A DNA stretch of 64,000 nt. Source: a virus. The notes below the pieces were generated by a model, which made no database searches, was not told where the DNA came from, and worked only from the letters and a program-made list of their open reading frames with translations. Positions 2,781 to 54,827 of the stretch are shown here, one piece after another. Each line of letters begins with the position of its first letter. Within the stretch, counting starts at the first letter, position 1. The DNA lies in the IMG/VR virus record IMGVR_UViG_3300037264_000690, positions 1 to 64,000 of that record; one strand, given 5' to 3'. A program made the translations under genes and the position numbers.

Positions 2781-3452
2781 TTGAACGGCAACATAGAAAT
2801 GCACGCGCCCGACATCACTCGCGATCGTATTGTCTGTATTGTCGGTGGCTGCATAGTCAACCTGAGTCATGGCGTTTTGGAACGATTCTCCGATCCAGGT
2901 GCGGTGTGGATCCGCATGGTGCCAGCTGAGCTGAACGAGTTCGAGAAGGTCAACCCAACGGTATACCCGCATGAGCGAGACGTCCGCGTCATACATGACT
3001 TCTATGTTGGCACGGTTGAGGAGATCGTGACTGACTTTCGAGCTAAGTTGGTGGCCGCGTGGGATCACATGACGTGTAAACCGAGCGACGGTCAACCACA
3101 GCTGAACCTCCCAGCCTTTGGCGAGCCGAGCATGAGGAAACAGACTGAGGTGCTGGAACGACACGGCCTCAATCGCTTCGTCGTTGGTCCCGAGCTAATA
3201 GCTGATAGGAATGACCTGAATGAGCGTGAGGAACGCCGCAATAAACTCGATAAGGTCGAGACCAATCAAGACGCCTGGACTCGTTGGGAGCTGATGCGGA
3301 TCGTGGCTCAGTTTAACGGTCGATACCACAGTGATAACACCAGCACGAGCAACTGTCCGACCGATAACCCGTCGGCGGTTCAGAAACTTATCGACGCACT
3401 TACGGTCCTTAAAAAGGACCGTGATGCGCTTGATAAGAGTCGTGAGGACTAA
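2781..3452 (+). CDS. Hypothetical protein
   Basis: ORF with AGGAG RBS, TTG start. Confidence 0.6.
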   Translation: MNGNIEMHAPDITRDRIVCIVGGCIVNLSHGVLERFSDPGAVWIRMVPAELNEFEKVNPTVYPHERDVRVIHDFYVGTVEEIVTDFRAKLVAAWDHMTCKPSDGQPQLNLPAFGEPSMRKQTEVLERHGLNRFVVGPELIADRNDLNEREERRNKLDKVETNQDAWTRWELMRIVAQFNGRYHSDNTSTSNCPTDNPSAVQKLIDALTVLKKDRDALDKSRED

Positions 3453-3485
3453 TATGCAACTTATATTACCCAGGAGAGAACACCA

Positions 3486-4058
3486 ATGAAGACGCTGTAT
3501 CTCCCGGTCGGCTTGCCTCAGTCCGGCAAGTCGACTTGGGCGCGCCAGCAAGGCGTACCCATCGTCAACCCCGACAGCATCAGGCTGGCCATACATGGCC
3601 AGCCTTTTTTCGCACCTGCTGAGCCGTTAGTGTGGGCCACTGCCAAAATTATGGTCCGCTCGCTCTTCACAGCGGGGCACAACAACGTCATCCTGGACGC
3701 CACTAGCGTCACCAAGTCGAGACGCGATCAGTGGAACTCAACGGAGTGGGCGTGCCGCTACGTCGTCTTCAACACGGACCCGGACGTCTGCATCAAGCGT
3801 GCTGGCGACAATACCGTGCTCGTCCGAGTCATACATCGGATGGTCGGTGAGTATGAGCGCGTTGACATCACGGACAACTGGATGGCGCCCAAACCGATCG
3901 AACACGACCGCGTCTTTGAGGTCCTAACCTGTGGCTGCCCACGACGTGTCCTGTCTGTCGACGAGGGCTGGCAGCCCGAGTATGGCCACCCCTCTCTCAC
4001 GGATATGGAACGGCACAATGCCCACCGTTACGTGACCGTTGAATCGAAAAAGCCTTGA
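3486..4058 (+). CDS. P-loop kinase, AAA_33 / polynucleotide-kinase-like
   Basis: GLPQSGKST, PDSIR, VILDAT, lid CIKRA. Confidence 0.8.
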   Translation: MKTLYLPVGLPQSGKSTWARQQGVPIVNPDSIRLAIHGQPFFAPAEPLVWATAKIMVRSLFTAGHNNVILDATSVTKSRRDQWNSTEWACRYVVFNTDPDVCIKRAGDNTVLVRVIHRMVGEYERVDITDNWMAPKPIEHDRVFEVLTCGCPRRVLSVDEGWQPEYGHPSLTDMERHNAHRYVTVESKKP

Positions 4059-4082
4059 CTCGTTATCTGTTTTGTGTATCAT
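4055..4082 (+). promoter_or_regulatory. Sigma70-like promoter
   Basis: TTGACT...TGTGTATCAT upstream of the PTH2-like gene and the tRNA-like array. Confidence 0.55.
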
Positions 4083-4113
4083 TTATGTCAGAAGGAGATC
4101 AATCATGTTGTAG

Positions 4114-4494
4114 ATGCACGAAGAGCAAACTGCTGTGACCGAGACACCGATCGAGCATGTCTACGCTGTCGTCTGTAAGGACATCCCCTTGCAGCACCAA
4201 GCTGTCCAAGCCTGTCACGCCTGTATTGCTGCTGGTCGAGAGATCATCAGCATCCCCACTCCTTACCTCGTTGTCCTCACTGTGCCCGATGAAGCTGCGC
4301 TCATAGCGTTGAGCAACAAGCTCAATGACAATGGCGTGCAGCATCGTGTATTCCGTGAGGATGATATGGGTGGTCGTGCTACAGCCTTGGCAACCCAGAA
4401 CCTGAATCACCGTCAGCGTGACTTGTTCATAGGCATCAAGCTCTATCGCACGGAGAAGAAGCCATTCCGTCGACGGTTTAGTCGGCGGCGTTGA
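4114..4494 (+). CDS. Peptidyl-tRNA hydrolase 2 (PTH2)-like protein
   Basis: YAVVCKD...AVQACHA...LVVLTV.DE..L...FREDD....TALA pattern. Confidence 0.7.
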   Translation: MHEEQTAVTETPIEHVYAVVCKDIPLQHQAVQACHACIAAGREIISIPTPYLVVLTVPDEAALIALSNKLNDNGVQHRVFREDDMGGRATALATQNLNHRQRDLFIGIKLYRTEKKPFRRRFSRRR

Positions 4495-4502
4495 AACTCG
4501 TA

Positions 4503-4579
4503 GGCGGTGTAGTGGAGTAGGTTACCACGCCTGACCCTATATGGGTCAGGAGAAGAGGGTTCAAGTCCTTCCACCGCCC
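4503..4579 (+). ncRNA. tRNA-like RNA 1; anticodon arm is an 8-bp stem with a 5-nt TATAT loop
   Basis: Acceptor GGCGGTG/CACCGCC, D stem GTGG/CCAC, T arm GAGGG-TTCAAGT-CCTTC. Confidence 0.8.
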
Positions 4580-4583
4580 ACAA

Positions 4584-4675
4584 GATCGGGTAGCTCAGTT
4601 GGCTAGAGCAATGCCACGCCGGACATCGATAGGTGTAAGGCAGGCAGGTCGCAGGTTCGAATCCTGCCCCGATCG
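4584..4675 (+). ncRNA. tRNA-like RNA 2; anticodon arm extended by ~18 nt into an irregular hairpin
   Basis: Acceptor GATCGGG/CCCGATC, D stem GCTC/GAGC, T arm GCAGG-TTCGAAT-CCTGC. Confidence 0.8.
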
Positions 4676-4685
4676 CTGCCTGTAA

Positions 4686-4762
4686 GGTCGGGTAGCTCAG
4701 TTGAGATTATAGAGCACTGCTGTGCACAGCAGAGGTCGTAGGTTCAAGTCCTACCCCGACCA
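4686..4762 (+). ncRNA. tRNA-like RNA 3; anticodon arm is the perfect palindrome CTGCTGTGCACAGCAG (6-nt loop)
   Basis: Acceptor GGTCGGG/CCCGACC, 13-nt D loop without GG, T arm GTAGG-TTCAAGT-CCTAC. Confidence 0.8.
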
Positions 4763-4767
4763 CTTTT

Positions 4768-4850
4768 GGGTGAGTAGCTCAGTGGTAGAGCGCTGCTACA
4801 GCCGCAAGGCCATGGGCAGAGGTCGACGTGTTCAACTCCGTCCTCACCCG
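4768..4850 (+). ncRNA. tRNA-like RNA 4; anticodon arm extended and capped by a GCAA (GNRA) tetraloop
   Basis: Acceptor GGGTGAG/CTCACCC, D stem GCTC/GAGC, bulged T stem with TTCAACT loop. Confidence 0.8.
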
Positions 4851-4854
4851 TTTA

Positions 4855-4927
4855 CCTGTCGTAGCTCAACTGGTAGAGCAGGAGGTTCTAAACTTCCATG
4901 ATGCGGGTTCGAATCCCGCCGACGGGT
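4855..4927 (+). tRNA. Amber suppressor tRNA (anticodon CUA)
   Basis: Canonical cloverleaf; GGAGG-TT[CTA]AA-CTTCC; no encoded CCA. Confidence 0.85.
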
Positions 4928-4930
4928 CTG

Positions 4931-4967
4931 AAGGCTGGCATCACAAGATGCTGGCCTTCTTCGTTTA
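4931..4967 (+). terminator. Intrinsic terminator after the array
   Basis: AAGGCTGGCATC-ACAA-GATGCTGGCCTT + CTTCGTTT. Confidence 0.65.
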
Positions 4968-4993
4968 CAATGTCTATCTAAAGGAGGAATGTT

Positions 4994-5227
4994 ATGTGGA
5001 ATGATCACGAGAATGATAGCTGGTGGTTGGCCCTGCTGATTGTCGGCGTACTGCTCTTCACTGGCGTCTTCACCGTCGTCAAGGCATCATTCAAGGCGAA
5101 TGCCTACTACAACGTCACTGGCAAGCACGTCTCGACCTGGGATGCCATCTGGCTCGACCTGCGAGTGCAGGAGCCGACTGAGGCTGCTCCAGTCAAGTCA
5201 GCCCCGCCTACCACCAAGAAGGATTAA
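4994..5227 (+). CDS. Small membrane protein
   Basis: AGGAGG RBS; one TM segment. Confidence 0.7.
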   Translation: MWNDHENDSWWLALLIVGVLLFTGVFTVVKASFKANAYYNVTGKHVSTWDAIWLDLRVQEPTEAAPVKSAPPTTKKD

Positions 5228-5228
5228 C

Positions 5229-5381
5229 ATGGCCGATCAAAAGCAGCTCATCTGTTGGCTGTGCAAGCAGCCCATCAAGCCGAACAAAGTTCACTTCCAG
5301 GGCGGTCAGACCACGCATCCTGCGCACAAGAAATGTCTGATCGAGATCAAACCATCCAAACGCCACGGAGGAGGTATCTGA
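5229..5381 (+). CDS. Small Zn-finger-like protein
   Basis: CWLC...HKKC; AAGGA RBS. Confidence 0.55.
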   Translation: MADQKQLICWLCKQPIKPNKVHFQGGQTTHPAHKKCLIEIKPSKRHGGGI

Positions 5382-5528
5382 TCATGCTTCACCACGGTAT
5401 GAAGCCCAAGGATGAATCTAGCGATGGCTGACATCTACACCCACGACTCGTTGAAGCCAAGACGGTTTTACAAGATCGGCGTTGGCATTGTTGATATAGA
5501 TGGCAACCCCATTCAAAAGGAGAAGAAT

Positions 5529-6173
5529 ATGTACGAACGGTTCACCGACCGAGCCCGCAAGGTCATGCAGCTGGCCAACCTGCAGGCTCAGCGTCTCAAC
5601 CACGAGTACATCAGCACCGAGCATCTGCTGCTTGGTCTACTCATGGAGTCGAGTGGCGTCGCCACTAACGTCCTACGTCGCCTGGGTCTTGACTTGGCTA
5701 AGTGCCGCGCCGAGTGTCTCAAGATCGTCCAGCCCGGCCTCGGCCCCGGCCCCGACGTTATGACCATGGGCAAGTTGCCCATGACGCCTCGCATCAAGGG
5801 CTGCATTGAGCAAGCCATTCAAGCTGCCCGAGACCTCGGCCACAACCACGTGAGCACCGAGCACCTGCTTCTGGGCTTGTGTAGCGAGTCGGAAGGCATT
5901 GCTGCCCAGGTGCTCAAGAACTTCGGCGTCACCATGGAGGTGATCAAGGCGGAAGTCCTCAACCTGATTGGTATAGACACCAAGACGGATAAGGCCCGGG
6001 AAAATAGTGACCTGACTAGGTCGTTGCGGTGCCATGGTAACCTGCTACGCAATAGCACCAAGGTATGGCTAACCCAGTGGATCGGCGACCGTCATATCTG
6101 CAACTCCGAGAACTGCTCCGTCTGTGAAGCCTGGGAGGCTTACGACGTGCTGTTCCGACAACAAATGGAGTAA
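5529..6173 (+). CDS. Stand-alone ClpC-type N-terminal (double Clp_N) domain protein with a Cys/His tail; no AAA domain
   Basis: MYERFTDRARKVMQLA...HEYISTEHLLLGL, second TEHLLLGL repeat; AAGGAG RBS before 5529. Confidence 0.85.
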   Translation: MYERFTDRARKVMQLANLQAQRLNHEYISTEHLLLGLLMESSGVATNVLRRLGLDLAKCRAECLKIVQPGLGPGPDVMTMGKLPMTPRIKGCIEQAIQAARDLGHNHVSTEHLLLGLCSESEGIAAQVLKNFGVTMEVIKAEVLNLIGIDTKTDKARENSDLTRSLRCHGNLLRNSTKVWLTQWIGDRHICNSENCSVCEAWEAYDVLFRQQME

Positions 6174-54732: not shown

Positions 54733-54804
54733 GGTCCCGTAGCTCAGCGGCAGAGCGATTGCCTGTTAAGCAATAGTGCCTGGGTTCGAGTCCCAGCGGG
54801 GCCT
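54733..54804 (+). tRNA. tRNA-Asn (GUU)
   Basis: Cloverleaf; ATTGC-CT[GTT]AA-GCAAT; atypical acceptor and U discriminator. Confidence 0.85.
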
Positions 54805-54827
54805 CTCATGGCGATCTTTCGGTAACA

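Follow-up and report, generated by a model that had tools for sequence, protein, structure and literature searches.

Closed-arm tRNA-like elements in a predicted stop-gated PTH2-like/suppressor tRNA operon of an IMG/VR phage

The stretch of DNA analysed here (the window) comprises positions 1 to 64,000 of the IMG/VR virus record IMGVR_UViG_3300037264_000690, which is 94,413 bp long and has an estimated completeness of 46%, so that the whole phage genome would be roughly 200 kb. The segment at 4055–4969 reads as one predicted operon, in which a short leader ending in a TAG stop codon is followed by a PTH2-like gene, four tRNA-like elements and an amber suppressor tRNA (Table 1). Gaps of 4–10 nt separate the tandem tRNA-shaped units, and the promoter candidate at the head of the segment was the sole promoter-like site within 3400–5500. 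The four tRNA-likes, numbered 1 to 4 in the 5' to 3' direction, are our main subject: they are tRNA-derived genes that have kept the acceptor stem, the D arm and the T arm and in which the anticodon arm is closed or extended, making normal decoding impossible. An earlier reading of the sequence (the original prediction) had put the array forward as its best candidate for an undescribed system; we found that it does not stand alone and is an accessory part of a conserved, stop-gated PTH2-like/suppressor operon.

Table 1. Features of the predicted operon in the window, and closed- or extended-arm elements of related loci (L numbers; positions are those of the locus named).
Feature	Position	Strand	Basis or detail
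Sigma-70-like promoter candidate, TTGACT-16-TATCAT	4055..4082	+	consensus match only, 10/12 positions
Shine-Dalgarno AAGGAG	4092-4097	+	sequence
Leader ATG TTG TAG	4105-4113	+	TAG (4111-4113) is codon 3, in frame with the PTH2-like body
PTH2-like open reading frame, 126 aa	4114..4494	+	ends in TGA, 8 nt 5' of tRNA-like 1
tRNA-like 1	4503..4579	+	RF00005 52.7 bits
tRNA-like 2	4584..4675	+	RF00005 47.0 bits
tRNA-like 3	4686..4762	+	RF00005 51.8 bits
tRNA-like 4	4768..4850	+	RF00005 44.5 bits
Canonical suppressor tRNA, anticodon CUA	4855..4927	+	ARAGORN and RF00005 (63.4 bits)
Intrinsic-terminator-like hairpin, 13 pairs, then T-rich tail	4930..4969	+	consensus match only; hairpin 4930-4959
Element of L012	520-594		arm 7 bp + GCAA
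Element of L011	682-755		arm 7 bp + GAAA
Element of L010	418-506		arm 6 bp + GGAA, D-loop insertion too
Element of L015	4678-4748		arm 5 bp + UUGC
Element of L024	4845-4914		arm 6 bp + AAG
Element of L024	4925-5007		arm 9 bp + 10 nt
Element of L036	447-526		arm 9 bp + 8 nt
Element of L082	2464-2539		arm 20-nt palindrome
Element of L008	4299-4379		arm design as in tRNA-like 4
Element of L102	4350-4473		arm 67 nt
Element of L009	1274-1378		arm 49 nt

Outside the anticodon arm, all four elements were as intact as the original prediction had described them. Our own scanner recovered 7/7 acceptor pairs, a 4-bp D stem, a 5-bp T stem and a TTCRA T-loop in each, and all four belong to RF00005, the Rfam tRNA model, over model positions 1–71, with scores of 44.5–52.7 bits relative to a gathering score of 29 bits. 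A canonical 5-bp/7-nt anticodon arm was present in 0/4; the arms of tRNA-likes 1–4 are 21, 35, 16 and 27 nt long and were skipped by the covariance model as local insertions. Our folds of these arms agreed with the shapes first proposed for them. The arm of tRNA-like 1 (4530–4550) is CCTGACCC-TATAT-GGGTCAGG, an 8-bp stem with a 5-nt loop (UAUAU), and that of tRNA-like 2 (4612–4646) is a 35-nt hairpin of three segments (4 + 3 + 5 bp) with a GAUA cap, 18 nt above the length of a normal arm. The arm of tRNA-like 3 (4717–4732) consists of a perfect 16-nt palindrome, CTGCTGTGCACAGCAG, with two possible folds (6 bp and a UGCA loop, or 5 bp and a 6-nt loop), and tRNA-like 4 (4793–4819) has a 5-bp base, an internal loop and then GCC-GCAA-GGC, i.e. 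3 bp with a GNRA cap (GCAA). Relative to shuffled sequences, the z-scores of the arm folds were -6.7, -3.9, -3.9 and -1.8 for tRNA-likes 1–4, and those of the cloverleaf folds were about -4.2 to -4.4 for tRNA-likes 1–3 and -1.9 for tRNA-like 4. Outside their arms, which are unrelated, tRNA-likes 2 and 3 share 85% identity; in addition, the D loop of tRNA-like 3 has 13 nt and no GG, and the T stem of tRNA-like 4 carries a 1-nt bulge.

The feature set of a decoding adaptor (a 5-bp stem, a 7-nt loop, U33, a 3-nt anticodon and a purine at position 37) was absent from the four elements. The original statement that none has a 7-nt anticodon loop held for tRNA-likes 2–4 and is weaker for tRNA-like 1, which also allows a loop of 7 or 9 nt; it is the only one of the four in which a 7-nt loop could be forced (7 bp + CUAUAUG), and position 37 is then a U. 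Moreover, in its orthologue from a related locus (L007:992–1067) a 6-bp stem carries a loop, CUUUUGA, that is close to canonical; of the four, tRNA-like 1 is therefore the one for which loss of the anticodon is least secure. Undetermined calls had been expected from ARAGORN, and tRNA-like 2 was indeed called 'tRNA-???'; tRNA-like 1, by contrast, was labelled 'Tyr (AUA) at position 37', because the 7 bp + CUAUAUG reading is possible, and tRNA-likes 3 and 4 were missed. In an intron test of tRNA-likes 2 and 4 and the odd elements of L008, L024 and L036, no contiguous deletion of the needed length restored a 5-bp stem together with U33 and a purine at 37, and group I introns were rejected because the inserts are far too short. 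CCA is encoded by 0/5 of the genes (the four tRNA-likes and the CUA tRNA). The 3-70 pairs of tRNA-likes 1–4 are C-G, U-A, U-A and G-C, and neither G3-U70 nor any other anticodon-independent identity set was recognised in them. A blastn search of the array against cultured phages returned no more than general tRNA similarity, to Synechococcus phage S-WAM1.

Related loci were retrieved with an alignment of nine homologues of the PTH2-like protein (A1), which gave 80 metagenome loci, 16 viral loci and 5 loci from bacterial metagenome-assembled genomes (Planctomycetes, Acidobacteriota); single-protein searches of viral contigs, with the PTH2-like protein or with a Clp_N protein encoded 3' of the operon, gave no related loci. 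All cassettes were reached via the PTH2-like gene, which is a source of ascertainment bias. A covariance model (R1) made from 29 canonical tRNAs of the related loci found 114 tRNA-shaped elements in 82 loci; tRNA-like 1, which the default filters of R1 missed, and L015:4678–4748 were added by hand. Elements with closed or extended arms (odd elements; Table 1) sit between the gene and the suppressor or directly 5' of the suppressor, and closed-arm elements lie between the two in the window (four copies), L008–L015, L024, L036, L101 and L102. The number of tRNA-likes per cassette varies from 1 to 4. A tRNA-shaped element starts ≤20 nt from the PTH2-like stop, or overlaps the end of the open reading frame, in 19 of 78 unique loci, and in the clade nearest the window the first element after the gene is almost always closed-arm. 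Overall, the closed-arm tRNA-likes are an accessory, non-universal feature of the cassette. At L008:3956–4400 the PTH2-like open reading frame has no stop before the tRNA-like and reads ~100 nt into it, so that a cut by RNase P would leave a non-stop mRNA.

The odd arms range from 10 to 67 nt in length. Compared to 86 canonical arms, their mean minimum free energy was lower (-9.5 vs. -3.5 kcal/mol, p = 5e-6), and per nucleotide they were about twice as stable. GNRA sequences made up 4/10 tetraloops relative to an expected 0.3 (binomial p = 1.7e-4). We also compared the cassettes with the main tRNA arrays of three huge phages in which the same gene is located elsewhere: odd elements accounted for 22/116 cassette matches (about 19%) vs. 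3–6/114 in the main arrays (p = 7e-5 to 2e-3), where 108/114 covariance model matches were canonical. One element of a main array, L112:7583–7653 (6 bp + UGAC), found among ~45 canonical tRNAs of a 407-kb phage, is clearly closed-arm, so that the PTH2 cassette is not the only place where closed-arm elements occur.

Selection on the fold was apparent from two orthologue pairs. tRNA-like 1 differs from L007:992–1067 by four compensatory double changes (two of them in the acceptor stem, the others in the T stem and the odd arm, one each) and one G-C to G-U change, the PTH2-like proteins of the two phages being 82% identical. tRNA-like 4 differs from L008:4299–4379 by five compensatory double changes, of which the T stem and the basal arm stem hold two each and the acceptor stem one, and the architecture of its arm has been kept although the PTH2-like proteins are only 62% identical. 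Together, the two pairs gave nine compensatory double changes, one G-C to G-U change and no stem-disrupting change. Furthermore, the GNRA-capped arms of L010, L011 and L012 have perfect stems that are mutually unrelated. Compensatory changes together with unrelated, perfect GNRA-capped stems are not the pattern that free decay would be expected to leave. With the enrichment in cassettes, these results bear out the original view of a selected family, as opposed to random decay, and we consider it likely, with good confidence, that the closed-arm elements are selected, non-decoding members of the cassette.

Assignment of the neighbouring gene to PTH2 is suggested by a Pfam score above the cut-off together with a predicted Pth2 fold. 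The match of the window protein to PF01981 (PTH2) was borderline (23.4 bits vs. a cut-off of 23), and 8/9 members of the PTH2-like family matched this profile. An AlphaFold2 model of modest confidence (pLDDT 63.6) was compared to PDB with Foldseek, where the top 13 matches were all Pth2 proteins; the best was 1q7s (Bit1; E 7.7e-4, TM 0.60), and the neighbours also included AF2095, MJ0051 and Sulfolobus Pth2. A profile search of PDB sequences with alignment A1 gave no match. The closest protein relatives (P0002–P0005) are about 80% identical, and distant copies occur in the cultured jumbo phages RaK2/K64-1, XacN1, Xoo-sp13, CM1/RAS14 and ME3. A PTH2-like gene with a CUA suppressor was also found on contigs binned as Planctomycetes or Acidobacteriota (L106–L110), L110 being an 8.26-Mb Rubripirellula chromosome; these copies may be prophages and may hint at hosts.

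The Shine-Dalgarno sequence in the window serves the ATG at 4105 and is followed by ATG TTG TAG ATG CAC GAA. Thus, the window has all parts of a stop-gated PTH2-like/suppressor cassette, i.e. a Shine-Dalgarno sequence, an ATG, a short leader, an in-frame stop and a cognate suppressor on the same strand. The same arrangement, with a Shine-Dalgarno sequence, an ATG, 1–12 codons and an in-frame stop ahead of the PTH2-like frame, recurs in 50 non-duplicate related loci, and the body after the stop mostly lacks a start codon of its own, the next residue in relatives being Ile, Val or Gly. The stop is TAG in 44 unique loci, and wherever the retrieved DNA of these loci includes a suppressor (27 loci), the anticodon is CUA; in the three loci with a credible TGA stop and a suppressor (L009, L058 and L092) the anticodon is UCA in 3/3. 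In the window and its relatives the block is therefore an ordinary stop (TAG or TGA) and the key an ordinary suppressor tRNA, with no need for frameshifting, and the CUA tRNA at 4855–4927 would be expected to read the TAG at 4111–4113. TAG ends only 8 of 99 long plus-strand open reading frames of the 94,413-bp record (TGA 50, TAA 41), and no second convincing TAG-locked gene was found in this record. The match of stop and suppressor, together with the lack of another locked gene, suggests that an amber suppressor that would otherwise appear an orphan has a specific target.

In the leader regions of L007–L105, purines predominate immediately 3' of the stop (50 of 53 loci; G 31, A 19, C 3, T 0), and an ACG codon precedes the stop in 16 loci; leader subfamilies have common peptides before the stop, e.g. 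M..GFT. Some CUA suppressors (L012:969–1044, L089:4418–4490 and L074:3264–3336) have a 6-bp anticodon stem with a normal CUCUAAA loop and are apparently functional; stems of 6 bp also occur in half-canonical neighbours (L007:992, L009:1455, L010:508 and L013:991), whose anticodons (UUU, UAU, AAU and UUG) showed no consistent match to the codons flanking the lock. Complementarity of the odd arms to the PTH2 leader or 5' region, as an antisense role would imply, was no better than to the leaders of other loci, and an 8-nt match between the arm of tRNA-like 3 and the leader was rejected because it fell inside the control range.

Directly 5' of the operon lies an AAA_33 (polynucleotide-kinase-like) gene at 3486–4058, and a strong terminator-like hairpin (10 pairs and a T run) was found at 3582–3605 within its coding region. 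The Clp_N protein encoded 3' of the operon, at 5412–6173, is a stand-alone double Clp_N domain protein without an ATPase. Canonical tRNAs number only two in the record, the CUA suppressor and a tRNA-Asn(GUU) at 54733–54805.

As arm length is unconstrained among the odd elements, we infer that any partner of the tRNA-likes would read the acceptor/T/D top half. Reading of this kind would leave out ribosomal decoding sites and would make decoys for anticodon nucleases, a use raised in the original prediction, unlikely; candidate partners compatible with it are RNase P, RNase Z, the CCA enzyme, EF-Tu and Pth-type enzymes. We tentatively favour processing punctuation as the main job of the tRNA-likes, which would then be modules for RNase P/Z processing, a proposal that we hold to be plausible rather than probable. 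According to this proposal, the tRNA-likes would act through the acceptor/T minihelix and the D/T elbow, and host RNase P and 3'-end enzymes would cut them from the polycistronic transcript, such that each unit would be one punctuation mark. Cutting would detach the PTH2-like mRNA a few nt past its stop and would free the suppressor. The stable hairpin that seals the arm would guarantee folding and would keep the RNA off the ribosomal decoding site and away from anticodon-reading enzymes.

Several observations weigh against the punctuation proposal. Four tandem copies are not explained by punctuation alone, and what appears to be a recent duplication of tRNA-likes 2 and 3, with their similar bodies and unrelated arms, looks more like a matter of dosage. 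In many cassettes the suppressor lies 5' of the gene and there is no tRNA-like at the end of the open reading frame, so that a 3' tRNA-like is not needed for the function of the gene. A requirement of RNase P for the acceptor/T minihelix alone explains only weakly why the D arm was retained, and the elbows of tRNA-like 3 (without G18G19) and tRNA-like 4 (with its T-stem bulge) may be imperfect. Co-transcription and cleavage of the units are predicted here solely from consensus signals. Finally, in the window an ATG stands directly 3' of the leader TAG, and termination-reinitiation could bypass the lock in this phage.

The main rival proposal is that the tRNA-likes are dosage-dependent ligands or sponges of a protein that binds the top half, most obviously the co-transcribed PTH2-like hydrolase, whose activity the RNAs would buffer or direct in the manner of a tandem RNA antitoxin array. 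The tRNA-likes are strictly adjacent to the PTH2-like gene and co-oriented with it, and variation in copy number, the recent tandem duplication of tRNA-likes 2 and 3 included, is better explained by a ligand than by punctuation. The parts that have been kept (acceptor/T) are those contacted by Pth-type enzymes and EF-Tu, the arm being free to vary, and the amount of the enzyme would seem to matter, given how tightly its translation is gated. Against these points stand the retrieval of every locus through the PTH2-like gene and the closed-arm element of L112, which belongs to a bulk tRNA array outside the retrieved cassette region; moreover, no archaeal Pth2 is known that is toxic or requires an inhibitor. 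We regard a ligand role as unlikely, if deserving of attention, and place at the same low level the broader idea that the operon is a three-part device for translation control, consisting of a gated Pth2-type enzyme, a private suppressor and an RNA buffer of pseudo-substrates with adjustable copy number. In that device, for which no counterpart has been described, the tRNA-likes would form a dedicated class of phage regulatory RNAs that bind the enzyme or some other tRNA-handling factor of the host. It is somewhat less likely again that the elements are functionless relics, i.e. former decoding tRNAs (old keys of the tRNA-Ile/Leu type) that lost their anticodons and whose arms were made palindromic by template-switch mutation. 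Such an origin would account for the closest relatives of most odd bodies, which are one another and tRNA-Ile(GAU)-like genes of other cassettes, for the near-canonical loop still present in the L007 orthologue of tRNA-like 1, for the perfect DNA palindromes of tRNA-like 3 and L082:2464–2539, and for the many cassettes without such elements. Relics would not be expected, however, to show compensation in every stem difference between orthologues, that in the odd arm included, nor perfect acceptor, D and T stems in all four copies, nor the conservation of the tRNA-like 4 arm design across the distance to L008; GNRA caps, moreover, are not self-complementary and yet recur on unrelated stems.

Recognition by anticodon nucleases depends on the sequence and the modifications of the loop. 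These enzymes would have nothing to bind in a tetraloop or in an arbitrary arm of 10–67 nt, and such an arm so cannot compete for them, which makes the unconstrained length and loop sequence of the odd arms a poor fit to their targets and counts against the nuclease-decoy part of the original prediction. Decoys could also act more broadly, on host anti-phage nucleases, nucleotidyltransferases or acetyltransferases that recognise tRNA shape. The module adjoins the AAA_33 and PTH2-like genes, a closed GNRA arm would itself resist cleavage in the anticodon loop, and the PTH2 of jumbo phages has been assigned to the RNA-repair and ribosome-rescue functions that serve in conflicts (PMC7824862); none of the genes beside the module was identified as an RNA ligase, though, and the version directed at acceptor-end toxins is possible without being specifically supported. 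We consider decoys of any kind quite improbable. Least credible, to the point of being very nearly dismissed, is that the elements are real decoders in disguise, with short introns or with expanded loops reading four-base codons. The loop of 7 or 9 nt that can be drawn in tRNA-like 1 is in its favour, but the lock in the window is a plain TAG with a canonical CUA tRNA as its key and the record has no other convincing locked gene. In addition, no single contiguous deletion gives a canonical stem-loop in tRNA-likes 2 and 4 or the like, the loops of tRNA-like 3 and the GNRA-capped relatives have 4 nt, and those of tRNA-like 1 and its orthologue differ (UAUAU vs. UUUUG).

A literature search gave no description of the gated PTH2 cassette, of closed-arm phage tRNA-likes or of a link between them, and the closed-arm units can be described as tRNA-like non-coding RNAs within a lock-and-key operon that is apparently undescribed. 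Non-decoding tRNA mimics are known in few settings (mascRNA, YrlA and tmRNA), and a conserved phage family with sealed, often GNRA-capped arms was not described in the literature searched. If the units are processing modules, tRNA punctuation would operate in mixed mRNA-tRNA operons of phages; as ligands or sponges, they would represent a novel type of viral RNA that regulates the translation machinery. The orphan amber suppressor, in turn, gains a concrete putative target in the leader TAG. For annotation, the results warn that the PTH2-like genes of these phages start 5' of an in-frame stop and that tRNA finders silently drop or mislabel closed-arm elements.

Among known systems, the leader resembles those of prfB (RF2), with its autoregulatory in-frame stop, and the lambda bar minigenes, in which the outcome depends on the activity of a translation factor or of Pth. 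The early stop or two-codon mini-open reading frame of these systems is similar to ATG-TTG-TAG before a Pth-type gene; the likeness concerns the leader, not the tRNA-likes, and here read-through by a co-encoded suppressor is implied rather than frameshifting or drop-off. T4 species 1 and 2 RNAs are small stable RNAs of a phage tRNA cluster. In Klebsiella phage RaK2, two pseudo-tRNAs and a Pth2 were reported (PMC3622015). The RaK2 pseudo-tRNAs and the T4 RNAs are likewise tRNA-shaped or tRNA-adjacent and lie inside phage tRNA clusters, and the PTH2-like relative of RaK2 lies among tRNA genes as it does here, but its flanking tRNAs (Leu-UAA and Gly-UCC) are canonical and there is no leader stop. 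In the RaK2 locus (L104, 174125–179421) we also found canonical genes for tRNA-Leu(UAA) at 2363–2450, tRNA-Gly(UCC) at 2817–2892 and tRNA-Met(CAU) at 4761–4838 that are absent from the GenBank annotation, two of which flank the PTH2-like ORF216.

The tRNA-like domain of tmRNA is likewise an anticodon-less top half tied to ribosome rescue and peptidyl-tRNA chemistry; in contrast, the elements described here keep full D and anticodon arms and have no G3-U70, tag open reading frame or SmpB, and ARAGORN found no tmRNA. YrlA (RF02553) is another non-decoding mimic of the acceptor, T and D arms, with a different, Ro-binding helix at the position of the anticodon stem. The tRNA-likes are not members of that family (30.2, 28.5 and 18.7 bits vs. 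a threshold of 69); the matches run from the T arm of a unit into the D arm of its neighbour and so reflect general tRNA-likeness, and no Rsr/Ro gene was seen near the module. A match to the skipping-rope family of Rfam was also below threshold. The closest functional parallel is with mascRNA/MEN-beta (RF01684) and mitochondrial tRNA punctuation, in which a longer transcript likewise ends, on its 3' side, in a cloverleaf with a non-decoding arm. Any resemblance is one of function alone, as tRNA-like 1 scored 21.3 bits vs. a threshold of 42.5 and is not a member of RF01684. In these systems the cloverleaf is a cutting signal for RNase P/Z, which is the mode of action that we rank first for the phage units. 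They are eukaryotic, nuclear or organellar, whereas here four tandem units followed by a real tRNA lie in a phage operon and their processing is predicted.

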